A DNA stretch of 64,000 nucleotides from a virus (IMGVR_UViG_3300018057_000010:15138-79137), one strand, 5' to 3'; positions 28,987 to 56,898 are shown, numbered from the stretch's first letter. Notes: a model not told the origin generated them from the sequence alone. Program-made: numbers and translations.

Positions 28987-29311
28987 ACCTGCAACCATAC
29001 ATCGATGACATCGCTATGCCTGCAACGAAGAGACAATACCTGCAACTGTGGAATCCGATCCGTATCGAGCCATTTGCGAGACCTGCAACTCAACTATATG
29101 ACACGTGTATTTGCAATACCTGCAATATGACCCTGCTCTTCCCGCCTGCAACTTTCAGCGCCTTATCCAGTCTGCAACATAAGCCATTTGCCTGTAATAA
29201 CGTTCTGCGAATCTGCAACGTGGACCAGCTGACAATCACCTGCAACGAACACAGCCCAAGGAACAAACCTGCAACACTCGAATGGAACACATCCTCATTT
29301 CTACCTACAAC
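28987..29311 (-). CRISPR. Micro-array A: ~12 minimal repeats GTTGCAG(G/A) separated by ~11-35 nt unique sequence
   Basis: Exact CTGCAAC on + ending at 28995, 29026, 29046, 29089, 29152, 29178, 29219, 29246, 29275, plus 3 variants; identical to the CRISPR repeat 5' end. Confidence 0.6.
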
Positions 29312-29325
29312 CCTGCCCGCTACTG

Positions 29326-29877
29326 TTATCGGTTAGCCTGAGCCGCGATAAACGAAAATTCGTTTTCCATCCAAAAGTCTACTCGTTCTTGGAGCCAAGC
29401 GGTAACGGTCTGCTTGTTTTCGTCAGCCAGCTGCTGGACAGCTTCCACGTATGACTCTCTGAGCAGCACAGGCACGCGCAGATCGCCGGAGGGGATCAGC
29501 TCCACCACATCTGGGGTAATATTGGCCAGAGCATGGAGCATGAAATCGGGCAGCAACGGAGCCTCTTGGGGGGCAGGCGGTTCCTTACAGATTTCCCTAC
29601 CGGCATCCTCGCTTTGGACTTCGGAGTCGGCCTCCAGGTTTTGAGATAAATCCGTACTATTTTTTGGGTTCTTTTTTGCGCGGCCGGAGGACTTCTTCGG
29701 CGTCATTTCGATCACTTCGGCAGCACTGAAACTGTGGCCGTTTGGACACACAAAGTCAGTTGTTTCGGGGTCCATTTGGAGGGCAAAATCGTTCCCTTCC
29801 AAAGTAGCTGGAATCCTTTGGTGAACGGGAGTCGACTCCCAGTTTTTGAGACATTTCGGACAGCTAAGAAGATCCAT
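29326..29877 (-). CDS. Hypothetical protein (Zn ribbon, RHH-like C-terminus)
   Basis: CPKC...CPNGH; AGGAG RBS. Confidence 0.5.
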   Translation of the reverse strand: MDLLSCPKCLKNWESTPVHQRIPATLEGNDFALQMDPETTDFVCPNGHSFSAAEVIEMTPKKSSGRAKKNPKNSTDLSQNLEADSEVQSEDAGREICKEPPAPQEAPLLPDFMLHALANITPDVVELIPSGDLRVPVLLRESYVEAVQQLADENKQTVTAWLQERVDFWMENEFSFIAAQANR

Positions 29878-30164
29878 TTTCTGCTCCTGATGGGGGCGCC
29901 ATTGGCCCTTTGCGAATCTTTTTCGAACGTGCTTTTGTAGCGCTTTTGACGTTTTCGCGCACAGCGTTGACTTTTGCGTCACTGCGGCTCGCGCCACCTT
30001 TTTTCCCGCCTTGCGAACCTACACACTTTGGGCAGATGAGCGGAGTGTGGTGTATCGGACAAGTTGGCAATGCATCCTCGCGTACTTAGGGTTACCCCTT
30101 TATGTTGGGGATGCCTAATTTTGCACTTAGGAGCCGCGCCGACGCAAGGAGTCCGATTGTCGGA

Positions 30165-30641
30165 CTATTTCTTCATATGGTCGAAGATCATGAAGATGAA
30201 GGTGCCCACGGCCGGGATGCCGAGGATGATCGCTCCCACCCAGCCCAGGGCCTGCAGAGCGCCTTTAACCGTGCCCGTCATTTCCGACTTTGCGGCGATG
30301 AAATCCTCGCGCAGAACCGTCTGCCCGCTGGTGACCTTTTCCTGTAAAGCTTCCTGTCTCTGGCTCAATTCATGCCGCAATTCTTCATGCTTTTCTGTAA
30401 GTTCGCGCCGCAGGGCCATTTGATCGGCCGTAATCTCTTTCCGCATCACCACAAGCTGGCCGGAAATTCCGGTCGATTGTGGGCTCCCATAAATCTCCCT
30501 CATCACCTGCTCCATTTGAGCGCGTAACGTGCCTAGCAGTTCTTCAACGCTCTCCCCGGCCATCTGTGCTTTCCCCTTTGCAAATTTCTGCTGCGACGTC
30601 TTCAGCTCGAACAATTTTGCCGTCACACGACACCGTTCCAT
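30165..30641 (-). CDS. Coiled-coil protein with C-terminal TM helix (holin/XhlA-like)
   Basis: Heptads followed by a hydrophobic C-terminus; downstream of tail-fibre genes. Confidence 0.5.
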   Translation of the reverse strand: MERCRVTAKLFELKTSQQKFAKGKAQMAGESVEELLGTLRAQMEQVMREIYGSPQSTGISGQLVVMRKEITADQMALRRELTEKHEELRHELSQRQEALQEKVTSGQTVLREDFIAAKSEMTGTVKGALQALGWVGAIILGIPAVGTFIFMIFDHMKK

Positions 30642-30646
30642 CTCGT

Positions 30647-30997
30647 CTACACTGCCGTTGCCCCGGTCAGCAGCGTCGTCAGAGAGCTACTCTGTAGCAT
30701 CGCCAGATAAGCCTCTGTCCAAAGGATGTCTTTCACCGTAGTGGGGGCCGTCAAGGGAGAGGTACCCGTTACGGAACCGAACGTCGAGCTGAACAGCGTC
30801 GAGTCGAAGGCATAGCCATCTGTCTTGATGGGCTGCTTCCCATTCGCTGCTGCTGTCTCACTCACATAGATGGCAAAGGAAACGACAGCCGTTTGGGAAA
30901 CATGCGCTATCGAAACATTCGTGATCCGTAAATACGCATTGGTTGCCGTAAGACCTGCATCCGTCGTATAACTCGGTAATTGATATGCCATATTCAT
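30647..30997 (-). CDS. Tail-fibre-associated small protein
   Basis: Immediately downstream of the fibre gene; NAYLRITNV...EAYLAML. Confidence 0.5.
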   Translation of the reverse strand: MNMAYQLPSYTTDAGLTATNAYLRITNVSIAHVSQTAVVSFAIYVSETAAANGKQPIKTDGYAFDSTLFSSTFGSVTGTSPLTAPTTVKDILWTEAYLAMLQSSSLTTLLTGATAV

Positions 30998-30998
30998 C

Positions 30999-34379: not shown

Positions 34380-34383
34380 CGCC

Positions 34384-35739: not shown

Positions 35740-35839
35740 TGGATTGTCCTCGAAGAGGAGACTCCGCACCCGGCGCAGCGAGTGCGGAGACATTCCGCAA
35801 CTAAACGGTAAGCGGAAGAGCTATATGAATTCAAGCGGT

Positions 35840-36646: not shown

Positions 36647-36726
36647 GGGTTCTCCTTTGGTATCGAGCAACGCTACTCACGGAGATCTTACTTATATTGA
36701 ATGCCTCCGAGTTTACACCCGTTTTA

Positions 36727-38120: not shown

Positions 38121-38129
38121 GAAATCTCC

Positions 38130-39192: not shown

Positions 39193-39328
39193 ATTATGTT
39201 TCCTTGCATTCCAAGCAGTGGCTCCATTTCAACGACTGGGGACTCGATTTCGTCTTCCTTTTGCCCTCTGCTTTAGGAAAGTTATTTTTTGTCCAACGTA
39301 CACAGGCAAAGCAACGAAACAACTTTTA

Positions 39329-40585: not shown

Positions 40586-40841
40586 GTGGGACCAGTTGGC
40601 TTGCGGAGAGTTTCCCAAAGCGCTTCTCACTATGCTATTTCCGATTGCTTTCTGGAAGTTTTTTGTGTGCGAAGCGTGGCGAGTTTGATCCACCAATCGA
40701 TTTGTATCTTCTGCTTTTCTACATCCAAACCGACCTTTTGCTCGGCGGCAATATAGAGAGCATCGGCCAGAGAACTTTCGAGAATGCGGTCGACTTTTTC
40801 GGCCGTATCCAGCGCCTGATGGGCTTTGTCGTAGAGGGATT

Positions 40842-43075: not shown

Positions 43076-44821
43076 TCACTGCAAAGATAGGTAGATCTGG
43101 TTACTACCAATTTCGTGTCCAAAGTAAGGTGTGGCCTCATTATCGGTAGTAGAAAAAAGTGCTTTATTTTCAGCTACATCAGAAGCCCGTCGACTGGCAA
43201 TATCGATCAAATTCCCATCCATCCCTGCAACCGAGATCCAGAAACCGTCGATTCGAATCCGAACATCCTTCCGGTTCTTCTCCGCATAGACGGCGACCTG
43301 AAACCCTACCCCAATAGAAGCAAGAAGTTTCCTTTTCGCTTCGTTATTCAGATAATCCCACTCAAGCAGAGGCTTCAACAGATCTAAGAATTTGTCCGTA
43401 TCGACCGGTTCTTTGCGAGAAGTCATACCGTTCAACATACGCTTTGTTGCCTTCAGTTCTGCCTGCAACTTGTCGTCTTTTTCCGCGAAGACTTTTCTGT
43501 CGATTCTGCCATCGACATAGAGATCCTGGAGGCGATTAATCGAGCTTTCAAGGTTTGAGATCTCTTCTTCCAGAGCGCGGCGCTTCGAGGAGATTTCCTC
43601 TTCGGATTCCGAACCGATTTCGACCGAGAAGAGCTTCTCAACAAACTCTGGGTTCGCCAAGTTCTTAATCGCTTTATCGAGTTCCGTTTCGATCTTGTCC
43701 TTCGATACATTGGGGGATTTGCAAGCGAAGGGTTCCCCGGAAGCAGGGGTTATTGTCCGGCCACGTTCGGCATTTCCGCAACGATAATAGAGGTAGGACA
43801 GGCTGTGGTTAGTAGTGTGCCTTTGCTTCTGGGTTTGCAAAAGACCACCGCAGAAGGAGCACCGCAACCGTCCACGATAAACGTACTGATCGTTCGTGCT
43901 CCACTTGCCTCGCGAAGTAGAAAACTCCTCGCGAATTTTCAGGATGCGTTGGACCTGTTCGAAAATCTCTTCGCTTATCGGCCCGCCATTTTCGAATCCA
44001 GCCAGCCTGATTCTTTCCTGTTCTTCTTGGTCGAAATACTTGAAACGCTGATACCGAAGCCTGCCATCTTCACGATAGACATTCAACTCTGGATCGACGG
44101 TTCTCCGTATAACGTTGTAGCCGGTATATACAGGATTTCTAAGAATGTATTGCACTCGGTCACGGTTGAATCCAAGGTATCGTGCAATGCCAAGAATGTT
44201 CGTATTGCCGGAAATAAACTCGTTGAAAATCCACTTCACTTTCTCGATCTTGGCTTCGTCGACGACTAGCTGTTTCGACTTCGGGTCTTTCTTGAATCCA
44301 TAGGGAACATGGTCACCGCCTGTTACCCATTTCCCCGCCGACCGGAGGGATCTCCTGCCGGAAGTTGTCCTCTCGCGGATGACAGCGCGCTCGTGATCGG
44401 CCATGCCAAATTTCATCGACGCCCACAATCTTCCATGGGGAGTGCTGAAATCAATCACTCCGTCCGGGAGATAAATCTTGACGCCGTTCGTCTGGAGAAT
44501 GCCGAGAACCATATAATCCCCAAAGGAGCCTGGACGAACCAATCTCGACTCTTCGCGCATGATCACGCCATGGCATAAACCGGTCGCGCAGATCCTAAGC
44601 AGTTCTCTCATTCCCGGACTGCGCATTACCTGAGCGCCGCTTACGCCTTCGATCTCAATCGTCCATTTCACTTGGAGGTTGTACTCCGTTGCGATATCGC
44701 GGCAAGCTAATTTCTGAGCCGGGATGCCTCCACGGTCCTCTTCTGCCTGCTGCTCTGTCGATACCCGAATCAGCTCAATCGCCGCCTTCTTCGGTTCAGC
44801 TTGCTTGTCTTTCGTTTTCAT
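43076..44821 (-). CDS. Large serine recombinase (integrase)
   Basis: IRVSTEQQ, SRLVR, ERAVIRERT, PYGF, ILRNPVYTG, Zn ribbon CSFCG...YYRC...C, coiled coil. Confidence 0.9.
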   Translation of the reverse strand: MKTKDKQAEPKKAAIELIRVSTEQQAEEDRGGIPAQKLACRDIATEYNLQVKWTIEIEGVSGAQVMRSPGMRELLRICATGLCHGVIMREESRLVRPGSFGDYMVLGILQTNGVKIYLPDGVIDFSTPHGRLWASMKFGMADHERAVIRERTTSGRRSLRSAGKWVTGGDHVPYGFKKDPKSKQLVVDEAKIEKVKWIFNEFISGNTNILGIARYLGFNRDRVQYILRNPVYTGYNVIRRTVDPELNVYREDGRLRYQRFKYFDQEEQERIRLAGFENGGPISEEIFEQVQRILKIREEFSTSRGKWSTNDQYVYRGRLRCSFCGGLLQTQKQRHTTNHSLSYLYYRCGNAERGRTITPASGEPFACKSPNVSKDKIETELDKAIKNLANPEFVEKLFSVEIGSESEEEISSKRRALEEEISNLESSINRLQDLYVDGRIDRKVFAEKDDKLQAELKATKRMLNGMTSRKEPVDTDKFLDLLKPLLEWDYLNNEAKRKLLASIGVGFQVAVYAEKNRKDVRIRIDGFWISVAGMDGNLIDIASRRASDVAENKALFSTTDNEATPYFGHEIGSNQIYLSLQ

Positions 44822-45014
44822 CCCTTGGGTTCCTTGTTGCTGGATTCATCGCGAGGTATTCCCGCATGGCGTCGAGAGCTTCAACATCTTTACTCTCTTG
44901 CAGCAGAACTCTTATTTGGCGAAGTTGTTCTGTTCTCTGCGCGCCGATTTCCAGTAGTACCGTCGCAACGCCTTTAAGTGTACCTTGACTCGGTTTCTTA
45001 GTCGCCATAAATTT

Positions 45015-45347
45015 TTACCCAATTACTTCGTCGAGTGTCGGGATAATTAATCCTGGTACCGGAAATACAGTTCCGTGGCTGAGGTATCGCGTGAAAGCTT
45101 TATCGAGCTTTTTCCAGCTATAGCCTTTTACGAGATCCCACCATTCTTCGATGAGTTCCTCATTTACCGGGCGGTTCCAAAACACCGCGCACTTGTACAG
45201 GAAGGCCGCCAGGAGCGCTCGCTTTTCCTGATCCTCCACTGAGCCATTTAGACAGATGTTCCCGATTATTCCTGTTGAGGCTTTCTGCTTGATCATGCTT
45301 TCCACCGACATCGAATTTCCTCCCATATCTATCGAGCGGGCTCTCAT
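45015..45347 (-). CDS. Possible helicase loader/inhibitor-like protein
   Basis: Directly after the initiator; WWDLVKGY...FPVPG pattern; true start uncertain. Confidence 0.4.
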   Translation of the reverse strand: MRARSIDMGGNSMSVESMIKQKASTGIIGNICLNGSVEDQEKRALLAAFLYKCAVFWNRPVNEELIEEWWDLVKGYSWKKLDKAFTRYLSHGTVFPVPGLIIPTLDEVIG

Positions 45348-46158
45348 AATAACTCATCAACCTGCGTATCCAATAGCGAATTGGTTCGCTATGAATAACC
45401 TCGCTGCGCGCTCTATGTTGCAGACATTGACGCCATTGTTCCTGAGTAAGCAAGGGAAAGTCGCGAAGGAATTCTTTTACTGCCTTGCCATCGATCTTGC
45501 CATTGAAAGGCATCTCTACGCCGGGATTTTTCGTATCCCAGTAAAGCTTTAAATCCTCACGAATCGGATTCCAACGAAGATCGCGAGCTTCCTTCTCCTG
45601 TTTGGGCTTCGCTTCTTGCGAAGTCAAAACAAGGGGTTCTTCTGTTTTTCTATGTTCTTTCTTCTTGATATAAACATGGCGCCAATTTGGCGCTATCGAT
45701 GACGTCAATTTGGCGCTATCGATGGCGCCATTCTGGCACGATGCATCGACCGCTTCTGGCGCAGCTAATTGCGTATTTGCTGGGATTTCTGCAGCTTGCT
45801 GCGTCAAGTTGGCGCCATGGTCGATTTGGTCTTCCAGCTGGTCCAGGCGCTCATAGTCGATGGTGTAATACTTTGTCCTATCCCATGAACTTCTGACGCC
45901 CTGGCGGGTCTTCAGCAGGCCCCGGCGCTCCAGGCTGAGAGCGATTCGCTGGATGGTTCTAGCGCTGCAATGGGTTAATTTTTCTCCCCACTCTTCGTAG
46001 GATCTGGATGTCCAAACGACTCCGTCTTCGACGAACTCTCTCCGATTGAGAAGGTAATGGACCTGTTGCAACAACAATGCTTCATTGACGCCGACTCTGC
46101 GAGCCAAGCTCGGCAAAACAAGCAGAGGAGCTTCCTCGATCAGTAACTTGCTAGACAT
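45160..46158 (-). CDS. Phage replication initiator (N-terminal wHTH)
   Basis: PSLARRVGVNEALLLQQVHY...WTSRSYEEW...YYTIDY; internal iterons. Confidence 0.8.
   Translation of the reverse strand: MSSKLLIEEAPLLVLPSLARRVGVNEALLLQQVHYLLNRREFVEDGVVWTSRSYEEWGEKLTHCSARTIQRIALSLERRGLLKTRQGVRSSWDRTKYYTIDYERLDQLEDQIDHGANLTQQAAEIPANTQLAAPEAVDASCQNGAIDSAKLTSSIAPNWRHVYIKKKEHRKTEEPLVLTSQEAKPKQEKEARDLRWNPIREDLKLYWDTKNPGVEMPFNGKIDGKAVKEFLRDFPLLTQEQWRQCLQHRARSEVIHSEPIRYWIRRLMSYYESPLDRYGRKFDVGGKHDQAESLNRNNREHLSKWLSGGSGKASAPGGLPVQVRGVLEPPGK
45676..45820. repeat. Iterons (putative origin) inside the initiator gene
   Basis: G(C/T)CA-N3-TGGC at 45681, 45704, 45727 (23-bp period) and 45803; A/T-rich tract adjacent. 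Confidence 0.75.
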
Positions 46159-46307
46159 ATATGCCTCGGAATTAGGCAGGGGAAGTGAGATAAAAATAGG
46201 GCCGGTCGCCATCCGGCCCTACCGCGTTGAGCTACCCAAGGGAGTGGGTTGCCGGATTAACATCTAAGTTTGGAAACTTCGATGTTAAGGCCCTCCGGCA
46301 ACTAAGC

Positions 46308-46601
46308 TCAACGCAACTTAACAACTCTTCCGCCAGAAATCAATGACCTATTGAAAACCGGTCTTCTGGCGGAAGAGTCTAATTCGTGGCCCCAAATATC
46401 TTCGACCGTGACTTGAAAATAACGCGCTATGGCGATCGCCACGGGAAGCTTTGGATATTGTCCGGCCAGGATTAACGCCGCCGAGTTATAGCTGACTCCA
46501 AACTGGCTCGCAAACTCGCGTACGCTCATTTTATTGAAGCGCACCATGCGCTGCAGCGGATCTAGTCCTGGTTCGTCCCATGGTTGATTTTTGAATTTCA
46601 T
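46308..46601 (-). CDS. Cro/CI-type HTH regulator
   Basis: SVREFASQFGVS...PKLPVAIAIARYFQVTVEDIW. Confidence 0.8.
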   Translation of the reverse strand: MKFKNQPWDEPGLDPLQRMVRFNKMSVREFASQFGVSYNSAALILAGQYPKLPVAIAIARYFQVTVEDIWGHELDSSARRPVFNRSLISGGRVVKLR

Positions 46602-47789
46602 CTACTGAATTGTCGGTGCTTCTTCTGCGTTTGTCTTTACTATTTTGGCTCCTTCGATACGCGCCAGAATGTAAATGAGATCCTTCTTTTCCAATCCGTT
46701 TAAAATAAGGGCTATGGCGTCAAGAATACAGCTTTCGCATCCTTTTTGGAAGGTTTCCAGGTACGATCCCGGCTCGTCCAGGTTCCTTTGTATTCCAGCC
46801 ACAAAGACTGCATGGTACCCGAGTTTGTCTATGACGGTCTCCATTTCCCGCTGGAATTCGTCGGATTTTTTGTTCGCTTTTTTCGTAGCCATTAATTTTC
46901 CCATCCCTTGAGAGGTTGATGGTAATCGATCTAATTCATCTTTGAAATGTCCTCCACTTCCGGAGGAAACTCTCCCTGCGTTGTCTCCCCGAAAATATCG
47001 GCGTGCCTTGTCAGAAATTCGGTTGCATACAACAAATCCGTCTTTTCGTAATCTTCCATTTTGATTAAATGCGCTGCATGAGCGAGAGCTGTGCATTTCT
47101 CGCAGCCGCCCGAGATCTTCCCTACGACAGGGATATCGGTATGACTGGATCTTGGCGCTAAATAACAAAGAAATGCGTGGATCTCATATTGTGCCGCCAA
47201 CAGCTTTAGTTGTTTCATGAAGGCAATCAGCCTGTTTTGATCCTGCTTGGCTATGTCGGGAATTCCTGATTCGCTCATAACTCTCCCTTGGTGATTAAGA
47301 TGGGAGAAATCATACCAGCTGATGGAAACTCGGATCGGAGAAATTCAGGGAAGGGATCGGCCTCCTGAAAATCGACTACTTTCCGTTCTATAGAATCGCG
47401 TTTTACCGGATTACAGACAACGGAGCTTTCGTTCGTCTCTTCAGGAGGCCCACAAGCTGGTTATTTCTTCTCTGCCTTAGCAGGTTCCTGCGTCGTATGC
47501 ATGAACTTCCTGCTCTGGTAATCGTAATAATAATCCTTACCCCAGCCACGATTCACTTGAATAGAAAGAACGGCATTCTGTAGCGCGAGCTGCGCCTTTT
47601 CGACGTCCTGCCAGCGAACGAGAAGCACAGTCTCTTCTTCCTGAGATAGGGAGACGGGAGCAGGCGCGGAGCCAGCTTTTGCCACTGGAGGCGCTGCGGG
47701 TTGCTCTTGTTTGTTCTGGGTAAAGGCCGGAGACGCCAGCGCGATGATTACGACCGCCCCGGCAAAAAGGGACGTCCAATTCACTATCT

Positions 47790-48074
47790 TCATTTGCTCT
47801 CCTCAAGTTTTTCCGCGACATACTGATACACCTGCCCCAGCGTTCGCAGCTTTTCGAAATCGGCCTCGTCTGTTTCGATTTCGAACTCGTCTTCCAATTC
47901 GAAGAGGACAAATTCGCAATCGAGAGAGTCGGCGCCAAGGTCTTTTACGATCTCCGCTTCCGGAGTCAGCTGATTGGAGCTCAAGTGGTGAAGCTGCTTT
48001 ATGACGATCAAGTCGATCTTGTCTTTAAGCTCTTTCATGGCCTCAGGATCGGAAGTGATGGGTTTGTTCTTCAT
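47790..48074 (-). CDS. acpP: Acyl carrier protein
   Basis: DLGADSLD phosphopantetheine site, ELEDEFEIE. Confidence 0.85.
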   Translation of the reverse strand: MKNKPITSDPEAMKELKDKIDLIVIKQLHHLSSNQLTPEAEIVKDLGADSLDCEFVLFELEDEFEIETDEADFEKLRTLGQVYQYVAEKLEESK

Positions 48075-48801
48075 ACGTCGACACTCCTGGATAATTCAGG
48101 CCTCCCTGATATTGGGTGGCTTGCTTGTCGAGCCAAGCCTGATCGATCTTTACCGCCTGGATGGGCACGCTGCCGGCCGCAATCCCTTTGATTAGCAGCG
48201 TGGGATCGTTGACCTGAGCATGCCACTTCCTGCGATGGACCGAGCCAGGGGATTTCTTTGGAATCGAAGCCTGCACAATGACTGGAGGCGCCAACTCTTC
48301 GCTGTCCAATAATCGGACTGCTTCCTCTTTGTAGCCCTCCTGGTCCAGTTCGATGGCGCGTTCCAAACGGCGTTCCTGCTCCGCTTTCGCTACCGCTTCT
48401 CGTGCAATCTTTTCTGCTGCCTGCCTCTGGCGCTCCTGCTCCGCTTCGAAGATAGAGACTTGAACGCTAAGGTGATTCTTGGCGGCGTTAACAAGTCCGG
48501 CGTCGAGTTTCTCATTGTCGAGCACGATTTTCTTTGCGGCGTCGAAGACCTGTTTTACTGGCTTATAAAACTCTGTGACCTTGCCAGAGAGCGCCTGTAA
48601 CATGCTGCCCATTCCGACAGCTTCTTGATAAGTGAAAAGGTTCGTAACTTCGTATTGTTTTGCTGAGACGACAACCGGCAAGAACTCAGCGCGCAGCTGT
48701 TGCCTTTGTCGCGCATATGCCCCATCCGGAGCTTCTATCTGGCCCTTGAGAACGGTGACCAGCCCATATTGATCCGTTTCCTCTGGCATGAAATCCCTCA
48801 C
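48043..48801 (-). CDS. Coiled-coil phage protein of the recombination module
   Basis: Long helical region; C-terminal YPGV. Confidence 0.6.
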   Translation of the reverse strand: MRDFMPEETDQYGLVTVLKGQIEAPDGAYARQRQQLRAEFLPVVVSAKQYEVTNLFTYQEAVGMGSMLQALSGKVTEFYKPVKQVFDAAKKIVLDNEKLDAGLVNAAKNHLSVQVSIFEAEQERQRQAAEKIAREAVAKAEQERRLERAIELDQEGYKEEAVRLLDSEELAPPVIVQASIPKKSPGSVHRRKWHAQVNDPTLLIKGIAAGSVPIQAVKIDQAWLDKQATQYQGGLNYPGVSTYEEQTHHFRS

Positions 48802-49045
48802 TGAATGACGATTTGGACGGTGCCGGATATTTCTATCGTTTGGTGGGAACTAGCGTCTTCGAAGCGATATTTCGCTCCATTGATGGCGCTGTAAACAATG
48901 CCTTTCGTTTCCCATTCGCCGATCAGGTAACCACCGTCGTATTGCCGGACATGAATCGACTTAGCCGTGATTGCCGTCGTCGGCTGCTGTGTCCCCGAAC
49001 AGGCGACGAGACACGCTAATCCGGCAAATAGCGTGAAGGCCCGCG

Positions 49046-49696
49046 TCATGCCGCCTCTTCCTCCCGTTCTAATTTGTAACCGTGATTCGTCTTCCAGATC
49101 GCACAATAGAGCATGTACTGGAAGGTGCGATAGTCCTGCAGATCCTCGAAGTAAATGGGTTTCACCCGGCCATCGGGAAGTAATTGAGTGACGACACGCA
49201 GAAGACTTGCCGGAGAGTTTGGATTCTCTGCCAGGGCATAACCCGCTGTCTGCAAGGCCCAGCTCGGACTCGATGCCGAACAAGTTTTCAGATCGAGGAT
49301 GACCTGGCGTTCCCTGCCCTTGTAGCGCATCTTGCCCTTGTGATCGTAGGCATATCCGAACGACATGCCGTTGATCGTCGCAATGCCCGCCTGCTCTCGT
49401 TTTTCCGAGACAAAGGCCATTTCCCGCATCCAAGATTCCGCTCCGACAACATATGGCATCGCGGCCGGATCGACCGTATCCCAGTCCAGCGCCCCCTCGC
49501 AGAGATACTCGATGGACTTATGCACGGCTATGCCGATCTGCGATTTGCGCTGCAGTATTTCTTCCCGGATAAAGTCGTAATTCACCAAGCCCATAAGTTG
49601 CAGGACTTGCGTAACGCTCAGAACTTTCCGGCCCTGAGCGTCACGATAGATATGCCCCTTTTCCTCAAAGGAGCCGTTTTGGATCTCAAGCGACAT
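49046..49696 (-). CDS. PD-(D/E)XK exonuclease (Cas4/RecB-like)
   Basis: H.Y...SVTQVL...G.AVH...ILDLKT...LQTAGY. Confidence 0.8.
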   Translation of the reverse strand: MSLEIQNGSFEEKGHIYRDAQGRKVLSVTQVLQLMGLVNYDFIREEILQRKSQIGIAVHKSIEYLCEGALDWDTVDPAAMPYVVGAESWMREMAFVSEKREQAGIATINGMSFGYAYDHKGKMRYKGRERQVILDLKTCSASSPSWALQTAGYALAENPNSPASLLRVVTQLLPDGRVKPIYFEDLQDYRTFQYMLYCAIWKTNHGYKLEREEEAA

Positions 49697-50284
49697 TTGC
49701 CGTCTCGGCGTTTTTTCTTTCTTCCGTGGCCTTTTTGCGGGGGTCCAGATAGATAACCACAGTCTGGCCGATGACGGAGGTCCGCAAGTGGTTATGCCGA
49801 GGAGTTTTGTTATTTAACGCACGAATCGAGGAGGCGGTTCGCTCCGCAATTTCAGGTGAAGAAAAGTCCTCTACGACAGCCTTGTTGTATCCAACTTCAA
49901 TCGCCTTGTTGATCAGGTGATCGTACTTGGAGCTGGTTGCGCGCTGAGGCAGAACTTCTGCTAATTCGACTACTTTCATGATTCCCTCTTTGGAAATAAG
50001 TAATTACGCCAAATCGATCCTGGCACTTGGAACCTTGATTCGCGGGATACGAATAACCTTCACGACAGCATACTGAGAGCAGGTCCGATTCCCGCAACTC
50101 GTTATGATCAATTGAATATCGCTGCGATCATAATTCTCGGAGTCGTCTTCATCCCGGCGCTGCTGTGCTTTCGATCTTTTCTCGATGCCGCGAGAAAGAT
50201 TCATGTCTAGAACTTGACCGCATTCCGTGCATTGATACTGCGGAACCGCATTCACCGATTCGTCTGCACTTGCCATCGTTTCTC

Positions 50285-50506
50285 CTATACGAGGTCTCCA
50301 CGACCGAACTTCCCGGCGATAAATTCGTTGAAGTATCTGCCCGGACTCGACGCTTCCATTAAAGAGTCGTAGATATCCTGAGTGACCCCGATCCATCGAT
50401 AGCTCTTGCCGGATTTGAACTGAACTACCAGCGTCCCCGTCTCTGGATCGAAGCCAGCCGAATCCAGGTTCGAGCTATTCAACGGTTGCATCGTGACTGA
50501 GTCCAT
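50285..50506 (-). CDS. KTSC domain protein
   Basis: SSNLDSAGFD...LVVQFKSG.SY...LMEASSPGRYFN. Confidence 0.85.
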   Translation of the reverse strand: MDSVTMQPLNSSNLDSAGFDPETGTLVVQFKSGKSYRWIGVTQDIYDSLMEASSPGRYFNEFIAGKFGRGDLV

Positions 50507-51683
50507 CGTTACCTTCATCCCTTTCTGTATCGCTGTTCGTTGCATTCTCTGGAGATGGGGATCTCCCCTCCGCCCAAAGGCAAACACCTTCGTAAATATC
50601 CACCGGCATATCCGAGACATGGTCGAGCTTCAAAGGAGCCAGGAAGTTTTCTTTGAGTTCCTGCTCCGTGTGAATTTTGTATCGGTTCAAGATGGTGTAG
50701 AGACGCTGCGCCCTGCCCTTGCCGATGATCTTGGGAGCGGATTCATGCACAGGCGGCGGCACTTCGGAGGCTGGCTTTATCTTGCCCTCTTCCATCAGCT
50801 GCTGAAGGATCGGGTTCCCGGTTTTATCCGAGTCCGATTGTCGGACTGGCTCTGGCTCCGTCGCCGGAGTAGCGACTTCTTCCGGAGGCTCCACGATGGG
50901 ATCGACCTTTACAGGAGTGACAATGTTAGGGACCGCAACATCGCTCACCGTAATGAGCTGCGTATCGGAGCCGGTGACCGGCGTCAATGCCGGAACGATG
51001 ATCGGCGCAATCTCTGCAACGCGCTGCGGCATCCGGATCTCGGAAACTATGTTCCCCTGAGACGAGGTGTGCAGATTCCCTTCCAGGATTCTTTCTGCTT
51101 CATCCTCATCGTAGATACCGGCAATGCCGAAGGCGTAGCGGGCAGCCTGAATCAGCGCCTTGTGGCGCAGCATACGGATCGGTTTCTGCTTCCACTGCTT
51201 TGTGTCGCGGACGCATTCCGACAGATACTCTTCGATCTTCGTCGGACGCTGCCGGTCCTTGCGGTGGATAATCGCGGTACAGGAAACCGGCTCTTTGCCT
51301 TCTTTCCCAGCCGCCCAGGCATACTCGAATTCGACGCCATCGTATTGCGGCTGGCGTTCGATAATCTGAATCCAGCCGTCTACGGAAACCACGGGAACGA
51401 TCCCGCCGTCTTGCGCGGGAAAAGCAAAGATCTCCCGCACGAACGGGTTGAGCTTATAGATCTTCGCCACCGACAGGAACATCAGCAGTTGCGATCTGGT
51501 TACCACTTTGTCGGAGGGGAATACGGTTTTCACCAGCGTCTGCTCGAAACGGGCAAGCTCGTCGCCGAAATCGTATTGCGCCGCCATCTGCCGGAATAGC
51601 GGCACATTCGCGAGCGCAAAAGTGCTGGCGCTGGGAAGTTCTTCGAGGTGTTGAATCTGAGTTTCGGGCGCAGTTGTGGCCAT
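50475..51683 (-). CDS. bet: RecT/Bet single-strand annealing protein
   Basis: LNPFVREIFAF...VSVDGW...PIRMLRHKALIQAARYAFG...YDEDE. Confidence 0.9.
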   Translation of the reverse strand: MATTAPETQIQHLEELPSASTFALANVPLFRQMAAQYDFGDELARFEQTLVKTVFPSDKVVTRSQLLMFLSVAKIYKLNPFVREIFAFPAQDGGIVPVVSVDGWIQIIERQPQYDGVEFEYAWAAGKEGKEPVSCTAIIHRKDRQRPTKIEEYLSECVRDTKQWKQKPIRMLRHKALIQAARYAFGIAGIYDEDEAERILEGNLHTSSQGNIVSEIRMPQRVAEIAPIIVPALTPVTGSDTQLITVSDVAVPNIVTPVKVDPIVEPPEEVATPATEPEPVRQSDSDKTGNPILQQLMEEGKIKPASEVPPPVHESAPKIIGKGRAQRLYTILNRYKIHTEQELKENFLAPLKLDHVSDMPVDIYEGVCLWAEGRSPSPENATNSDTERDEGNDGLSHDATVE

Positions 51684-51817
51684 GGATATCTTCTCCATGG
51701 GCCAGTCGCGCAGTACCCTATTTTGAGTAGGGTTGGCAACTCCGTGCCCGTTCGATCTTTTCTATTTATAAGCCAATCTTGCCTCGTGTCAAGGCAGGAT
51801 TGAGTTATATTTTCCGC

Positions 51818-52420
51818 ATGCAAGAACGATGGCTTACCTTCCCGGAATTATGCATGGAGTTGCATCTTTCCGCCCCAAAAGTTAAAAAGCTGATTAAAGC
51901 AGGCAAGCTGGCCGGTATTTGTTTCGGCAGAAAATCCTGTCTCGAATCCGATTGGAGATATCTCGATCCAAGCCCCCGTTATAAGCAGGCCCTTGAGGTT
52001 CAGGAGCTGCTGCTCTCCGGGAAACGCAGAGAAAATCTGATCGATATTCCTTTGCTTTCCACATCGGAGTTCTGCGAGATCGCGGAAATTACTTCCAACC
52101 ATCTCTACGTCATGATCCATCGCGGAATCGTGAAGCCCAGAAAGTTCGGCAAGTTTCAGCTCTTTAGCGTCTTGGAGTTGCGCCGCTTTCTCCGGCGCAA
52201 ACAGAAGGCCAAAGAAGCTGGAGTTCCACTTCACCGGATCGTCGAGTGGACCCTCGAAAAAGTCCAGGAATCGGACTCCGATTCGCTCTTGGAAAGCGAA
52301 GAAGATCGCGAAATGGAAGGAGCGTTGCGGCGAATCTTTCGACAACCCGAGCCGCAACGCTCCAAAATGCTACGAGATTTCTGGGATCGCTACGAACTTG
52401 CCAAACGATCCCAAAGCTAG
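51818..52420 (+). CDS. Tandem MerR/excisionase-like HTH protein
   Basis: WLTFPELCMELHLS...KLIKAGKL and LLSTSEFCEIAEIT...MIHRGIV. Confidence 0.65.
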   Translation: MQERWLTFPELCMELHLSAPKVKKLIKAGKLAGICFGRKSCLESDWRYLDPSPRYKQALEVQELLLSGKRRENLIDIPLLSTSEFCEIAEITSNHLYVMIHRGIVKPRKFGKFQLFSVLELRRFLRRKQKAKEAGVPLHRIVEWTLEKVQESDSDSLLESEEDREMEGALRRIFRQPEPQRSKMLRDFWDRYELAKRSQS

Positions 52421-52749
52421 TCTGCAACTATTCCAGACATGCACCGGCCTGCAACACATGACGCTCACCTGCAACTCTGCTGTATACCACCGGTCTGCAA
52501 CACAAATATACGGCCACGTTAGTCTGCAGTTTTCATGAAGCCGGACCCGCAACAAATCATGATCTCCGAAACCTGCAAGAGAAGCTCTTCCGCCTGCAGC
52601 TTGATATTCTACTTCCGTAAAACCTGCAACACGGCGAGATCGACTGCATTCGCCTGTAACAACTATAGCCTTTTCATCTGCAACATCTATCGATGGAAGT
52701 TTAGCCGCATTTGCCTGCAACTGGAAAACTGACCATGCTCACCTGCAAC
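52416..52749 (-). CRISPR. Micro-array B: ~13 minimal repeats
   Basis: Exact CTGCAAC ending at 52428, 52455, 52475, 52501, 52630, 52684, 52721, 52749 plus 5 variants; the first keeps GCTAGTCTGCAAC of the full repeat. Confidence 0.6.
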
Positions 52750-52768
52750 TGGAAAACCGCCTACGAAA

Positions 52769-53398
52769 TCAGCGAGCCTTCTTCCGGTCCTCGGTGGTGA
52801 AGGCAGCTCGTACGCCCATGCGCCGCGAGGCTACATAGGAGGAAACAGAACTCACCATCTGTCCATAGGCTTGCGCGTTGAGGGAATTGTAAGTCAACGC
52901 AGAATCCATCGTGACGCCCATGGAATCGCCGACGGCGATAGCATCCTGATTCGCTCCCACATAGACAAAATCCCAGTTGTAGATTTCTTTTTGCTGCGTG
53001 ACTAGAGCCTTTACCGTCTCGGCAGTGAATTTCCTGCTGGCATTCTCCTTCCCGTCGGTAATGGTCACCACAATGACATGGGAAGGACGTTGCTCTTCTG
53101 GGAGTTTAGAAAGCTCTTCGCCAAGTTCTACGATTGTTTTTCCCTGCGCATCGTAGAGAGCTGTTCTGCCTCTCGGCTTGAAATCTTCCTGGGTGAATTC
53201 CGGTATATCCTGAATGTTTTTATCGAAAACGACTTCGTATTGATCATCGAACTGCACTAGCTTTAACGCCGCTTCTCCGGGAACCTTTTTCTGGCCCTGA
53301 ACAAAGTCGTTGATCCCTTGGATCGCCGATTCGCGGCTCGCCTGCATCGACCCGGATCGGTCCAGGATTAAGGCTATTCTCGTAAAGTTATCCTTCAT
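52769..53398 (-). CDS. vWA domain protein
   Basis: LILDRSGSM MIDAS, PRGRTALYDA, ITDGKENAS. Confidence 0.9.
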   Translation of the reverse strand: MKDNFTRIALILDRSGSMQASRESAIQGINDFVQGQKKVPGEAALKLVQFDDQYEVVFDKNIQDIPEFTQEDFKPRGRTALYDAQGKTIVELGEELSKLPEEQRPSHVIVVTITDGKENASRKFTAETVKALVTQQKEIYNWDFVYVGANQDAIAVGDSMGVTMDSALTYNSLNAQAYGQMVSSVSSYVASRRMGVRAAFTTEDRKKAR

Positions 53399-53408
53399 AT
53401 CCTCTCCT

Positions 53409-53528
53409 ACCTGCAACCTTGACTTAACTCTGACTTCGACTACATCCACCTGCAACTGGCACAAAACCTGCAACACCGAACATCGGCGGCAAAGCCTGCA
53501 ACATCTCTAGTTCCATGTATCCTGCAAC
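53409..53528 (-). CRISPR. Micro-array C: 5 minimal repeats in the vWA leader
   Basis: CCTGCAAC ending at 53417, 53456, 53474, 53502, 53528. Confidence 0.55.
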
Positions 53529-53569
53529 GGCGCCAGCACCGGTGCGATTCTGGCCTGAATTGATGCTGC

Positions 53570-54277
53570 TTACCATGGAAACCAGTTAATTATTCTATCC
53601 ATCGCCTTTTCGAAGGTATGCAAGACCTCGTTTTTAGGCATGTCGGAGGGAATCTGGGCACGCGTAATTTCGATGAATCGCAGCCGGTCGCCCCAGAACT
53701 CTTTCGACCACCACGGCGGGACGATATTGAGTCGCGTTTCTCCGTGGGAGAGATCGTAATCCTCGAAGACAATTGGCTTTTTGTTTCGCTGGAAAGACGT
53801 CATGCAACTGTAATGGCCGGATTCCGTTATTGCATTCACGACCAGGGAGTCTCTCATATATTTGTCTGGCATATTGGCTATGGATGGGCCAAACCGTTTG
53901 ATCCTCCATTCGTTTGCGAGTCGCATAAACTTGTCGCGATCCCCCTGAACCCGGTCGGACATACTCGTAAAAGGTTCTTTCTTCATGTCGAAATGCGCGA
54001 GACATCCTTCGTTGGTTGTAATGACGGCAGCTGCATCTAAGAACGCCGCAAGAAGGGCGACCGATACCTGTCTTTTCCGCTTCTGCTCCGGCGTTTCCCA
54101 GCTGAAGTCGTAGGGTTCCAGCACCTCTCCGGTTTTGAGCACCAGAATAGCCTGCGATGGCAGCACTCCGGCGCCTCTTTCCTTTGGCATCTCCTTCTCG
54201 TAGGCGGCGACAAGCGCAAGCTTCGCTTTCTCGAATTCCTGCTTAACGATGTCTTCGATGCTGATAATCATCTCCAT
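53570..54277 (-). CDS. Hypothetical protein
   Basis: AGGGAG RBS; long ORF. Confidence 0.6.
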   Translation of the reverse strand: MEMIISIEDIVKQEFEKAKLALVAAYEKEMPKERGAGVLPSQAILVLKTGEVLEPYDFSWETPEQKRKRQVSVALLAAFLDAAAVITTNEGCLAHFDMKKEPFTSMSDRVQGDRDKFMRLANEWRIKRFGPSIANMPDKYMRDSLVVNAITESGHYSCMTSFQRNKKPIVFEDYDLSHGETRLNIVPPWWSKEFWGDRLRFIEITRAQIPSDMPKNEVLHTFEKAMDRIINWFPW

Positions 54278-54340
54278 CTCCCTATGGATTTGCCGGTAAA
54301 AATTTTAGCCCCGCCCGCTTCCACGCGAACGGGGCAAGAT

Positions 54341-54413
54341 GCTCGATAGCCGGATTCGAACCGGCGACCCTCACATTAGAAGTGTGATGCTCTACCAACT
54401 GAGCTAGATCGAA
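54341..54413 (-). tRNA. tRNA-Arg (anticodon TCT)
   Basis: D arm GCTC-AGTTGGTA-GAGC, anticodon arm TCACA-CTTCTAA-TGTGA, T arm GCCGG-TTCGAAT-CCGGC; one acceptor mismatch, no encoded CCA. Confidence 0.85.
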
Positions 54414-54415
54414 TT

Positions 54416-54588
54416 GTTTAGGAGCTTAACGTGCCTAGCCGACCGCCCGAGAACATTTGATCCTGATCACGCTGCTCTACCGCTAAGCTACGAGGCCATA
54501 ATTTTTATGGGGGCCTCGACCGGATTTGAACCGGCGACCGCGTTTTGGAATGTTCCCCGCTCCGGCATATCACAAACTCCCGACAAAC
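54416..54588 (-). ncRNA. Circularly permuted tRNA-like RNA (YrlA/Y-RNA-like)
   Basis: Order T arm, CGAGGCC-C-CCA, 10-nt linker, GGCCTCG, D arm; the anticodon stem extends into a long 5'/3' helix. Confidence 0.7.
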
Positions 54589-54660
54589 CTATTGGGTGAT
54601 AGCCTTAACCTTTTTCACAACGATAACGATAACGACAAACCTGGATTCCCCCTCGCGGGG

Positions 54661-54936
54661 TCACCCAAACTTTTTGAGCCAATCTTGAAGCTGTTCAATG
54701 AGCAGCTTCGCCGAATCCTGATCGAGATCGCACGCTATGGCGACTTTGTCTTTCCCTACGTAATTTGTCATTGTGTCCGACAAGTGTCTCCATGGAATCC
54801 TAAGGTAAACATGGATTTTGTCCAATGGATCGGCAGAGGACTCCACCAGCTGCAGAGATATCTGATGGTCAGCGTAATCGAAATTGGCATCCTCAATCGG
54901 TTCATAACGGACGAAGCCCCGGTCACTTATTTTCAT
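54661..54936 (-). CDS. Hypothetical protein
   Basis: AGGAGG RBS; ESSA...W...LDQDSAKLLIEQLQDW. Confidence 0.6.
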   Translation of the reverse strand: MKISDRGFVRYEPIEDANFDYADHQISLQLVESSADPLDKIHVYLRIPWRHLSDTMTNYVGKDKVAIACDLDQDSAKLLIEQLQDWLKKFG

Positions 54937-54944
54937 AGGCCTCC

Positions 54945-55712
54945 TTAGGACTGCAGGGGCTGGAAGATGTAATCCAGCAGCTTCTTGCCAACCTTATTGC
55001 CATGCACGTCGACTTCCTGCTCGTTGGCCCGCGCCCTGGCGCGAGTGACGGAGCGGATGGTCTTCTCCACACGATCCAACAGCTCCGTTTTTGTCGAAGG
55101 CGTCAACATGGCGCTCCACTCCTGCTCGCGAATCTCGCCCACCGGTTCATCGACGCTCAGCAATTGCGTTTGCGCCTGGAATTTATCGGTGGCCGGAGCT
55201 AGCGTGATGACCTTTGGCTCCTTCTTCGTGCGCGGTTTGACCACATCGCGAGCCTTGTAAACACCCTTCTTAGCATGCTCCGTGTCCAGCTGAAAGCCCT
55301 TGGCCGGATCGAGAGTAGGAATCGCCTGGATCAGCGCCTGAACGTCCTTCAGCCGCTTTTCCAGCTGTAGGAGCGCCGTTGCAGGGACCTGTTTCAGGAT
55401 CGCCGTTTCCTCGTCTTCGATCACCACATCGGCAAAGGCCTGCGTGTTGGCTGTGTCGATGTGGTAACCGGCGTCGATGGCCTTCGCCATGTGTGTCGAG
55501 ATCCACGCGATCTCGTTCGCAACCGTAGTCTGAATCTCTTTCTGTTCTTCGACAACCGTTTTGCTGTTTTCTTCCTTTGCCGTGTATGTCTTCCGCGTTT
55601 CCTCGAAGAGGTGCCGCTTCTTTTCGAAGGTTCCCATCAGATCCTGGCGGAGCTTTTCCGCCTGTCCCTTCAGGTTGCTTTCGACGGCAAGTAACTCGTG
55701 AAGTTTCGCCAT
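54945..55712 (-). CDS. Conserved helical hypothetical protein
   Basis: MAKLHELLAVE...VPATALLQLEK...IPTLDP...ARARAN. Confidence 0.75.
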   Translation of the reverse strand: MAKLHELLAVESNLKGQAEKLRQDLMGTFEKKRHLFEETRKTYTAKEENSKTVVEEQKEIQTTVANEIAWISTHMAKAIDAGYHIDTANTQAFADVVIEDEETAILKQVPATALLQLEKRLKDVQALIQAIPTLDPAKGFQLDTEHAKKGVYKARDVVKPRTKKEPKVITLAPATDKFQAQTQLLSVDEPVGEIREQEWSAMLTPSTKTELLDRVEKTIRSVTRARARANEQEVDVHGNKVGKKLLDYIFQPLQS

Positions 55713-55760
55713 TTCCCTTCTACCTCGTTTCGCTCGATAACCCTAACAACAAATCTGTGA

Positions 55761-55884
55761 ACCTGCAACGCACAATTCAATCCTCACAACCGATAGCCTG
55801 CAACCCGTTCCGGACCGCGCCTTTGCAACTATCTACATCTTCGTCCCTGCAACCGTAATTATGCAATGTAATGCTCCTGCAACC
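55761..55884 (-). CRISPR. Micro-array D: 5-6 minimal repeats
   Basis: CCTGCAAC ending at 55769, 55804, 55853, 55884; TTGCAAC at 55829. Confidence 0.5.
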
Positions 55885-56029
55885 CATAACCCCTTGACTA
55901 TGTCCCGAAAAAGAAGCCGCCCGGTCGTGTACGAGCGGCTCGAAGTTATGCCTATTACTCAGTGAGTCTGTCTGAGAGTAGGTGCTCGTGAAACGACTAT
56001 AACGCAAATGCGAATCTTGACAAGAGCCG

Positions 56030-56542
56030 CTACGAATTTTCCTGTGGAGAGGGATGCGGCAACCAGGAACCCCCGAACAATTCCTTGATCTTTTCCCAGC
56101 TAAGCTTGCGTTTTCTCGGCTCTTTATTGTCGAAGTTGACGGCAAAAAGATAGTAAAGAATAGTGAGCATGCCGCAGTTCAAGTAATAACTGATATCGCT
56201 TGCCAGGGAGTGCGGAGGGAGGAGACCGAGTAGAAACGTCATCGGCTGCAAGAGGACACGAATAAAGATCCAGTCCCAGCCCAGAGTCACATGCATCCTC
56301 CTCTCTCTCGGCATCTGATGCAGAGAGAGAAGCCAAAAGAGAATGACGGAAAGGAGTAGAAATAACTGCCAATGGTGATGCAAATAATAAATGAAAACGC
56401 TTTGCGCCGCCCAGATGCCGATAAGATTCCGCTCCAGGGTTCGCTGGGATATGCTGACCCTTCTTTCCAGCCAAAGCACCAACCGAACCGTAAGCAAAAT
56501 AAGATATGTGTCTGCGATGAGGATGGTTTTCAGGAAAAACAT
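56030..56542 (-). CDS. Multi-pass membrane protein
   Basis: About five hydrophobic segments. Confidence 0.6.
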   Translation of the reverse strand: MFFLKTILIADTYLILLTVRLVLWLERRVSISQRTLERNLIGIWAAQSVFIYYLHHHWQLFLLLSVILFWLLSLHQMPRERRMHVTLGWDWIFIRVLLQPMTFLLGLLPPHSLASDISYYLNCGMLTILYYLFAVNFDNKEPRKRKLSWEKIKELFGGSWLPHPSPQENS

Positions 56543-56593
56543 TCGCTTATCTCACAGCCTTTTACGATCCTGAAAAGTTTACCCCAAAAGCTT

Positions 56594-56869
56594 ACCTGCA
56601 ACCTTCTAATGACGACGAAACGGGAAAGTCCGATTATCGGACTCCCGCCTGCAACACACCACACGTTCCACCATAACCTGCAATCCGGTGATCGTACGCC
56701 TGCAACGAACACTCCCGTGCCTGCAACAGAGTCCAGCTCTTCTTCTTTTTAGCCCGCAACACCTCCACTTCCTTAATCCTGCAACATAGTCCAGTCTTTG
56801 TTGTTCTCAACCTGCAACATCTACCCTTATTTTCCTCTGCGACATTACTCATACCTCCAATTTCGCAAC
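56594..56869 (-). CRISPR. Micro-array E: ~8-10 minimal repeats
   Basis: CCTGCAAC ending at 56602, 56655, 56706, 56727, 56785, 56818 plus variants. Confidence 0.6.
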
Positions 56870-56898
56870 TTGGAGTGGCTCCTTAGCTGATTTTTAAA

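Follow-up and report, generated by a model that had tools for sequence, protein, structure and literature searches.

The 64,000-nt stretch of DNA analysed here (the window; IMGVR_UViG_3300018057_000010:15138-79137) is the right 64 kb of one virus record of 79,137 bp, and it raises the question of why a 9-nt box, identical to the beginning of the CRISPR (short palindromic repeats, clustered and regularly interspaced) repeats that lie near a cas9 gene of the same phage, has been multiplied to about 50 units in six non-coding clusters spread over 34 kb inside operons. A sequence-only reading of the window had taken five of these clusters for compressed guide cassettes and had listed repeat-mimic RNAs, or sponges for trans-activating CRISPR RNA (tracrRNA), among the alternatives. 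The latter fit the data better. The reading tentatively preferred here is that the clusters, called micro-arrays (MA) below, are multivalent mimics of the repeat tip which may dock tracrRNA together with a nuclease-dead Cas9 (dCas9), and that the box, not the linker, would be the selected unit.

A box multiplied in non-coding gaps

The core of the box reads CTGCAAC on the plus strand and GTTGCAG on the minus strand, which carries almost every gene of the phage. CTGCAAC is found 75 times in the window (both strands), against a mean of 7.6 and a maximum of 16 in 100 dinucleotide-preserving shuffles, so that the enrichment claimed for it holds under a statistical check; in the whole 79,137-bp contig, 60 copies are on the plus strand and 18 on the minus strand. 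The five intergenic clusters of the sequence-only reading were recovered, all on one strand and with the 32 exact plus-strand copies that it had counted (9, 8, 5, 4 and 6), and they hold 42 units once one mismatch is allowed. That list was incomplete, however, as a sixth cluster lies at 62100-62414 and two flipped boxes lie at 57534 and 57599. The sites are as follows.

MA1, 28989-29313, minus strand: 11 boxes (9 exact)
MA2, 52422-52751, minus strand: 12 boxes (8 exact)
MA3, 53411-53530, minus strand: 5 boxes, all exact
MA4, 55763-55885, minus strand: 5 boxes (4 exact), upstream of a DUF7873 gene (54945-55712, minus strand)
MA5, 56596-56845, minus strand: 9 boxes (6 exact), between open reading frames (ORFs) 56899-57405 and 56030-56542
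Two flipped boxes, 57534-57607, plus strand: GTTGCAGGT at 57534 and GTTGCAGGG at 57599, between the tracrRNA gene tracr-1 and cas9
MA6 (hybrid), 62100-62414, minus strand: units comprising 9, 9, 9, 9, 9, 16, 36, 12 and 14 nt of the repeat 5′ end

A position-by-position count gives exactly nine conserved positions, GTTGCAG-R-Y in gene sense (GUUGCAGRY in RNA), and no conservation in the flanks. The units are spaced 18-53 nt from centre to centre, and the linkers between them have a median length near 18-19 nt within a range of 9-44 nt. Multiples of 10.5 are not favoured in this spacing, so there is no sign of helical phasing, and the box has no dyad symmetry. Almost all linkers are unique; several units nevertheless have 15-17 nt in common across the junction of box and linker (TTTTCCA+box and GGTAGAT+box are examples), which points to growth of the arrays by duplication of units.

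Because the ORFs that overlap the clusters score low in codon usage (log-ratios of -0.38 to 0.02, against a mean of 0.26 for genes of at least 150 amino acids), the clusters are most likely non-coding. They occupy entire intergenic gaps, and box orientation tracks the direction of the neighbouring gene, which supports the earlier proposal of co-orientation with transcription; even the flipped boxes at 57534 and 57599 are co-directional with cas9, the only plus-strand gene of the region. MA1 fills the gap between the stop codon of orf223 (29326-29997) and a small zinc-ribbon ORF starting at 28985, and its last box, GTTGCAGGTAAG, abuts the ATG of this ORF. The last box of MA3 is followed directly by AGGAGAGGAT-ATG, the ribosome-binding site and start of a vWA gene (52769-53398, minus strand). 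The placement of the clusters in untranslated regions of operons needs one correction: MA2 is the trailer of this vWA gene, convergent with a plus-strand ORF (51779-52420), and not a 5′ untranslated region. MA4 comes after a promoter-like site (56023-55996) and a hairpin resembling a terminator (55941-55914). The mean sense-strand G-C skew is 0.22 in the micro-array gaps versus 0.06 in other gaps, and this excess of G over C fits a long untranslated transcribed RNA that avoids Rho loading.

CRISPR arrays are recognised by repeats of 23-50 nt and constant length, whereas the clusters have nine conserved positions, and full 36-37-nt repeats are confined to 60950-64000. Rfam gave no family match in the clusters, in the tracrRNA regions or in the box array of a related phage described below. 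Scanning IMG/VR with a three-box pattern returned, among the matches listed, mostly coding tandem repeats with periods in multiples of 3.

The box as the tip of the phage's own CRISPR repeats

The right end of the window carries the components of a type II CRISPR system.

tracr-1, 57431-57520, minus strand: anti-repeat tip UUACCGGCAAC, nexus-like hairpin, second hairpin and intrinsic terminator
cas9, 57718-60921, plus strand: 1067 amino acids, type II-C-like, reading frame intact
CRISPR array A, 60950-61445, minus strand: 36-nt repeats, ~30-nt spacers, one spacer duplicated
tracr-2, 62440-62535, minus strand: anti-repeat CGCUAGUCGGCAAC; predicted promoter at 62669-62641
CRISPR array B, 62530-63349, plus strand: opposite orientation, degenerate repeats of 33-38 nt
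CRISPR array C, 63555-64000, minus strand: second repeat class (37 nt) sharing the first 9-17 nt, one spacer duplicated; reaches the contig end

The repeats of all three arrays, two of the 36-nt class and one of the 37-nt class, start with GTTGCAG-R-C in the sense of the CRISPR RNA (crRNA), and the box is identical to their first 9 nt, in array B over the repeats at 62778-63349. It is therefore the exact tip of two different repeat classes, and the claim that the motif equals the tracrRNA-pairing beginning of the repeat stands, with the length of the identity set at exactly 9 nt. MA6 forms a graded series of 9, 12, 14, 16 and 36 nt leading from the box to the full repeat, which ties the boxes to the full repeats, and the repeats of array A decay into box-only units toward 61445. 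In 54 related bacterial Cas9 loci the repeat 5′ ends share a family pattern (GCTGTGG, GTTGTGG, GCTAGGG); as GTTGCAG fits this pattern, sequence comparison indicates that the box is derived from the CRISPR repeat and not the reverse. A repeat starting with GTTGCAG itself is found in none of these 54 loci, and a repeat tip multiplied outside an array in none of them nor in 20 viral Cas9 loci.

Exact spacer duplicates lie within 60981-61142 in array A and within 63633-63741 in array C, and the arrays appear to evolve by duplication and not by acquisition. No cas1 or cas2 gene was seen in the contig, including next to cas9.

Alignment of the phage Cas9 with 12 homologs reveals substitutions in both nuclease centres. 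In RuvC, the Asp of RuvC-I is replaced by Gln and the His-His of RuvC-III by Ala-Gln; in HNH, Glu/Asp-His is replaced by Thr-Asn and Asn by Leu. The Pfam domain RuvC_III is absent from the protein and present in nearly all listed homologs. Because these catalytic residues of RuvC and HNH are replaced, the enzyme is predicted to bind and not to cut. Its closest relatives among 5.8 billion proteins are ~40% identical and come from Terriglobia and other soil bacteria; a search of IMG/VR gave no match, and a metagenome scan only relatives at 31-36% identity. Near-identical variants of this Cas9 (P0002, P0123 and P0126) exist on contigs that lie outside our comparison set.

The scaffolds of the two tracrRNA paralogs (nexus-like hairpin, second hairpin and terminator; z = -2.9 and -3.9) are near-identical, the single visible difference being in the terminator stem, and the paralogs diverge within the anti-repeat, which has ACC in tracr-1 and GUC in tracr-2. 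Between the tracr-2 anti-repeat and the full repeats, pairing extends over ~15 nt and is interrupted by a single A-G mismatch, at position 6 (-19.5 to -27.9 kcal/mol, RNAduplex), whereas tracr-1 retains the tip only. Both paralogs have a conserved -35 element, TTGACA, ~140 nt upstream of the anti-repeat (at 57659-57654, within 57620-57660, for tracr-1), and may therefore be made as long precursors. The predicted precursors would contain two further anti-repeat-like boxes each, CCCTGCAAC and ACCTGCAAC in tracr-1 and AGTCTGCAAA twice in tracr-2; those of tracr-1 are the complements of the flipped boxes at 57534 and 57599.

Box variants follow the tracrRNA paralogs

The box and the tracrRNA anti-repeat are complementary over the nine nucleotides except for an A-G mismatch at position 6, so that the boxes have the feature of small CRISPR-associated RNAs (scaRNAs) of a partial repeat complementary to the anti-repeat outside an array. 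The variable last positions of the box co-vary with the paralogs. The GGU class, complementary to ACC of tracr-1, makes up 20 of the 44 units in MA1-MA5 and the pair upstream of cas9, as opposed to 0 of 41 in arrays A-C and MA6. Conversely, the GAC class, complementary to GUC of tracr-2, accounts for 3 of 44 units on the tracr-1 side and 21 of 41 on the tracr-2 side (Fisher 1.4e-7 for GGU and 6e-6 for GAC, both optimistic values, as the units are partly duplicates of each other). MA6, which adjoins tracr-2, has units of the GAC or GGC class only. When G-U wobble is allowed, position 8 (R) can pair with the U of tracr-2 in 47/47 units and position 9 (Y) with its G in 41/47.

A box array in a related phage

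The related set consists of 80 IMG/VR loci drawn from an alignment of large terminase (TerL) homologs, of which 16 contigs were read whole or nearly whole; it does not include the nearest relatives by TerL, which reach 70-75% identity on contigs of up to 97 kb (P0129-P0138 among the TerL proteins). One relative, G406 (IMGVR_UViG_3300015241_000015; 81.9 kb, estimated 92% complete, TerL 48% identical), has a comparable array. Its box, GGTCACYTCGGG, is 12 nt long and occurs 41 times when one mismatch is allowed (0.13 expected) in 1.3 kb of non-coding DNA, 39 of the 41 copies being on the gene-sense strand at a spacing of 13-68 nt. The array lies directly upstream of a homolog of the window gene 28349-28759 (46.5% identity over 86 amino acids), a member of the gene cluster that follows MA1, and 1.4 kb downstream of a homolog of the vWA gene, which MA2 and MA3 flank in the window. 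Since the same neighbours flank MA1-MA3, the array occupies the corresponding genomic place. The other 14 relatives, several of which are fragments, have no such arrays, and no gene exclusive to the two array-bearing phages was found.

No Cas9 was detected in G406 by tblastn with the phage Cas9, nor any cas family by Pfam in 20 of its ORFs, a non-exhaustive search. The sequence-only reading had held that the same clusters in relatives without cas9 would speak against it; the syntenic array of G406 counts in part against it, though its box is a different one. The G406 box forms the 3′ arm of a hairpin element, 38 nt long (-15 to -23 kcal/mol), the 12-nt loop of which, UAAAGACAAWWY, is conserved. 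Five copies of this element are arranged in mini-arrays of 2 and 3 units with a 72-75-nt period (L317, 7290-7405 and 8500-8689, plus strand), which flank the homolog of gene 28349-28759. Where the box varies, pairing with the other hairpin arm survives 27 minority letters and is broken by 3, and this variation points to RNA pairing there too. Neither an Rfam match for the hairpin element nor an IMG/VR contig other than G406 with the repeat core was found. The G406 linkers, some of which are about 13 nt long, have a balanced base composition and do not share the G-C skew of the array gaps in the window.

A common principle emerges from sequence comparison of the two phages: the terminal segment of a longer, structured and array-forming repeat is multiplied sense-wise in untranslated parts of the same region, and box variation is limited to changes under which an RNA duplex would persist. 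For the window there is no doubt that this longer repeat is of the type II CRISPR kind, and tracrRNA would be the partner that complements it.

Two further peculiarities of the relatives may be recorded. G406 has an ORF of 3619 amino acids (L312, 1877-12736, plus strand), the size of which recalls the virion RNA polymerases of N4-like phages. A related 101-kb phage, G404 (L305, contig 92800-93400), contains a 600-nt tract of ~120 units with a strict 5-nt period, NN(G/A)CC, one strand of which is extremely C-rich.

A possible docking function

In the preferred reading, the micro-arrays would be transcribed in sense within early operons, and every box, being the stretch of repeat that adjoins the guide, would pair as RNA with the 3′ tip of the anti-repeat of a phage tracrRNA. 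GGU boxes would pair best with tracr-1, and all R-Y boxes could pair with tracr-2 through G-U wobble. Such pairing would dock the tracrRNA carrying nuclease-dead Cas9 on the phage transcript, and in each docked unit the upstream bases would be offered as a guide. The arrays would then resemble many handles of scaRNAs or non-canonical crRNAs in tandem, and would buffer or recruit the complex of dCas9 and tracrRNA. Since the last boxes of MA1 and MA3 abut ribosome-binding sites, the arrays could also modulate neighbouring cistrons. The box would be under selection and the linkers arbitrary; selection on the box and not on the linker is suggested by linkers of 9-44 nt, by the lack of targets found for them (see below) and by the ~13-nt linkers of G406.

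Several points weigh against this reading. First, eight pairs with an internal A-G mismatch make a weak duplex (mean ~-11 kcal/mol, RNAduplex), and A6 is kept in 45/47 units though it can pair with neither tracrRNA, so that recognition would not be pure Watson-Crick pairing. Second, the boxes are predicted to be no more accessible than those of shuffled arrays, and the duplication of units that makes the class statistics optimistic tells in the same direction. Third, G406 has the same architecture and no detected Cas9; the architecture as such therefore does not need Cas9. Finally, the advantage to a phage of titrating its own effector is unexplained.

Alternative explanations

The somewhat unlikely possibility that the boxes bind a factor of the phage lineage, either a DNA- or RNA-binding protein or an antisense RNA, in a conserved regulatory region would make the likeness to the CRISPR repeat secondary. 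The G406 array, found in the same genomic neighbourhood with no detected Cas9, and the irregular spacing, which is typical of binding-site clusters, argue for it. However, three things would then have to be coincidences: the identity of the box with the terminal 9 nt of two repeat classes, its grading into full repeats in MA6 and its covariation with the tracrRNA paralogs. Arrays of protein-binding sites show phasing or dyad symmetry and a cognate protein nearby, whereas here there are no multiples of 10.5, no dyad and no exclusively shared gene, and in G406 the box ends a 38-nt hairpin repeat with its pairing kept (27 to 3).

Guide cassettes, as originally proposed, are unlikely. Linker plus box would form a minimal crRNA or scaRNA, and dozens of such guides would let dCas9 repress promoters of the host or of rival phages by binding only, through 11-20 nt. 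From what is established for scaRNAs and non-canonical crRNAs, and from Feussner et al. (2026), any RNA paired with the anti-repeat would indeed offer Cas9 its upstream bases as a guide; the median linker, at ~18-19 nt, comes close to the length of a guide, and few linkers occur more than once; the box corresponds to the repeat end that stays on the guide in type II crRNAs; and with a Cas9 that is dead yet intact, binding is all that would be possible. The linkers themselves do not bear this out. About a third of them are shorter than 16 nt, one measures 9 nt and there is no length ruler, whereas spacers have a length set by Cas1-Cas2 and come with adaptation genes or signs of acquisition; here the linkers range over 9-44 nt in a contig that lacks adaptation genes. 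The sharing of 15-17 nt across box and linker suggests duplication, not acquisition, and the analogous G406 array has linkers of ~13 nt. In the phage's own genome, linker seeds of 10-14 nt have no excess of matches over random k-mers, full spacers match it at chance level, and full spacers and linkers compared with 4.3 Mb of related phage and Cas9 loci gave only chance 14-16-mers. The two boxes upstream of cas9 have no second match near the cas9 promoter. Likewise, a guide match with a protospacer-adjacent motif (PAM) in a regulated promoter, the mark of scaRNA targets, was not found in the phage's own genome, the host genome not being part of that search.

A bolder version, multiplexed natural CRISPR interference in a temperate phage with dCas9, two tracrRNAs and ~50 units of linker plus 9-nt handle, seems quite unlikely. 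Its short guides would act on promoters of the host or of rival phages, or else the repeat tip would serve as a permissive PAM, by which the transcripts would guide dCas9 to their own DNA and shut early operons as a prophage repressor or timer.

Anti-CRISPR decoys are very unlikely. Together with the degenerate full arrays, they would flood a host type II system whose repeats match with useless handles, and the dead Cas9 with its tracrRNAs would absorb host crRNAs. Precedents are available in Racr (PMC10651486), in viral crlRNA arrays, in viral scaRNAs and single-guide RNAs, and in a phage type II-C Cas9 with a dead RuvC and a tracrRNA matching host repeats (PMC10910872). Moreover, the phage arrays are degenerate with duplicated spacers, and a box that follows the CRISPR type of the host would explain the different box of G406. 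However, no compatible host Cas9 is in sight, the nearest among 5.8 billion proteins being ~40% identical despite the abundance of the phage in at least 24 peat and wetland runs; a 16-nt pattern of the repeat tip, searched in 401 Terriglobia genomes (three of them, G110, G331 and G393, unpublished), produced no array and only isolated hits that did not exceed the controls; and, as noted, the 54 related bacterial loci lack a GTTGCAG repeat.

Other candidates were rejected: decayed ordinary CRISPR arrays (the period is ~29 instead of 66 nt), coding repeats (low coding scores, and spacing that does not follow multiples of 3), a pac site, iterons or Chi-like sites (six dispersed clusters, no phasing, identity with the repeat tip), and restriction or methylase sites (no nameable recognition site common to the box variants).

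Relation to known systems

The nearest parallels are the scaRNA of Francisella novicida and the scaRNAs and viral scaRNAs (vscaRNAs) that regulate Cas9 (Feussner et al., bioRxiv 2026, 10.64898/2026.06.01.729453). As in those RNAs, a partial repeat outside an array would pair with the anti-repeat beside a short upstream sequence, binding would take place without cleavage, and the units occur near the 5′ region of cas9 and in phages. However, scaRNAs are single units with extensive anti-repeat complementarity and a defined target, usually the cas9 promoter, whereas the phage described here has ~50 units with 9 nt of the repeat over 34 kb of operons, no target found and a dead Cas9.

Racr and solitary repeat units (Camara-Wilpert et al., 2023, PMC10651486) and viral crlRNA/Cracr arrays (Liu et al., bioRxiv 10.1101/2024.10.29.618823) are likewise phage-encoded repeat mimics, sometimes in array-like transcription units, that occupy Cas proteins. 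They mimic whole repeats of the host system, whereas only the 9-nt tip is kept here, and it is the phage itself that carries the full repeats that match, the tracrRNAs and Cas9, with no host system of this repeat found in the 401 Terriglobia genomes or the 54 related Cas9 loci. The phage-borne type II-C Cas9 whose RuvC is inactivated (Altae-Tran et al., 2023, PMC10910872) is similar in its location in a phage, in having lost nuclease function and in having a tracrRNA nearby and no adaptation genes. In that case HNH is still active, a CRISPR array is lacking and there is linkage to an SNF2 helicase; in the window, by contrast, both nuclease centres are replaced, and three arrays, two tracrRNA paralogs and the box arrays are present.

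The G406 array shares with the window a 9-12-nt box on one strand, irregular spacing, the neighbourhood and the identity of the box with the terminal segment of a longer repeat. It differs in that GGTCACYTCGGG is the 3′ arm of a 38-nt hairpin and that no Cas9 or cas family was seen among the ORFs scanned. No literature description of it, or of such box arrays in general, was found.

Non-canonical crRNAs from cellular transcripts were reportedly described by Jiao and colleagues in Science in 2021 (see also 10.64898/2026.06.28.735058). Such crRNAs arise when a stretch of mRNA complementary to the tracrRNA anti-repeat yields a Cas9-bound, guide-like RNA, much as proposed for the boxes; those sites are fortuitous and single, whereas the ones in the window are massively enriched and organised. 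None of the closest known systems has 9-nt units, dozens of operon-dispersed copies, a Cas9 dead in both centres and accompanied by arrays of its own, or tracrRNA paralogs in a pair. The finding is placed among regulatory or decoy RNAs derived from CRISPR repeats, with a real chance of something more.

The phage and the genes around the arrays

The record is that of a temperate tailed phage, with genes for the large terminase, a DnaB-like helicase, a replication initiator, RecT, a large serine integrase, a DNA methyltransferase and tail fibres. TerL searches of GenBank phages gave only matches at 30% identity or less. The phage sequence is present in at least 24 peat and wetland metagenome runs, and no RNA run was listed as carrying it. 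When contigs from four DNA runs were compared with window positions 44001-64000, identity exceeded 99.9%, and the single listed nucleotide polymorphism inside any micro-array was at 52538; across these four runs the population is clonal, and no array turnover was seen.

The window gene 28349-28759 (minus strand) encodes a small protein of a family that is kept across the phage group, with invariant QPGG...C.H...CP.C motifs, and is probably zinc-binding. Members lie directly downstream of the box arrays in both phages. The family has no Pfam or PHROG match, and alignment of its homologs brought no contigs beyond those already in the comparison set. Relatives of the DUF7873 protein were found neither in IMG/VR nor in the 401 Terriglobia genomes.

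Next to MA2, two overlapping ORFs on opposite strands, 51779-52420 (plus) and 51848-52357 (minus), have similar coding scores. Of the two, the plus-strand ORF alone has homologs in the relatives G405 and G406; it is therefore probably the genuine gene and converges with the vWA operon. A tRNA-Arg(TCT) gene is located at 54341-54413 (minus strand), followed by a sub-threshold match to YrlA (Y RNA-like) at 54444-54560 (34.7 bits against a gathering score of 69); the core of this tRNA is common to many other metagenome organisms, as seen from very high depth and loose ends at 54342-54412. A transposase of 530 amino acids (19465-21057, minus strand; phrog_688, E = 6e-211) likely marks an insertion sequence within the phage genome.

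Implications

If the boxes dock tracrRNA with dCas9, a handle of 9 nt would be smaller than any other natural one known for Cas9, and the phage would spread CRISPR-RNA function through ordinary operons in a form that every CRISPR finder misses. It would also be a natural model for building guide or sponge arrays that are multiplexed and very compact. The single phage case so far, in which RuvC only is inactivated (PMC10910872), would be joined by a Cas9 that is fully dead and accompanied by arrays. Finally, the G406 array suggests a wider, undescribed class of arrays built from the end of a longer structured repeat, which may be common in soil phages.

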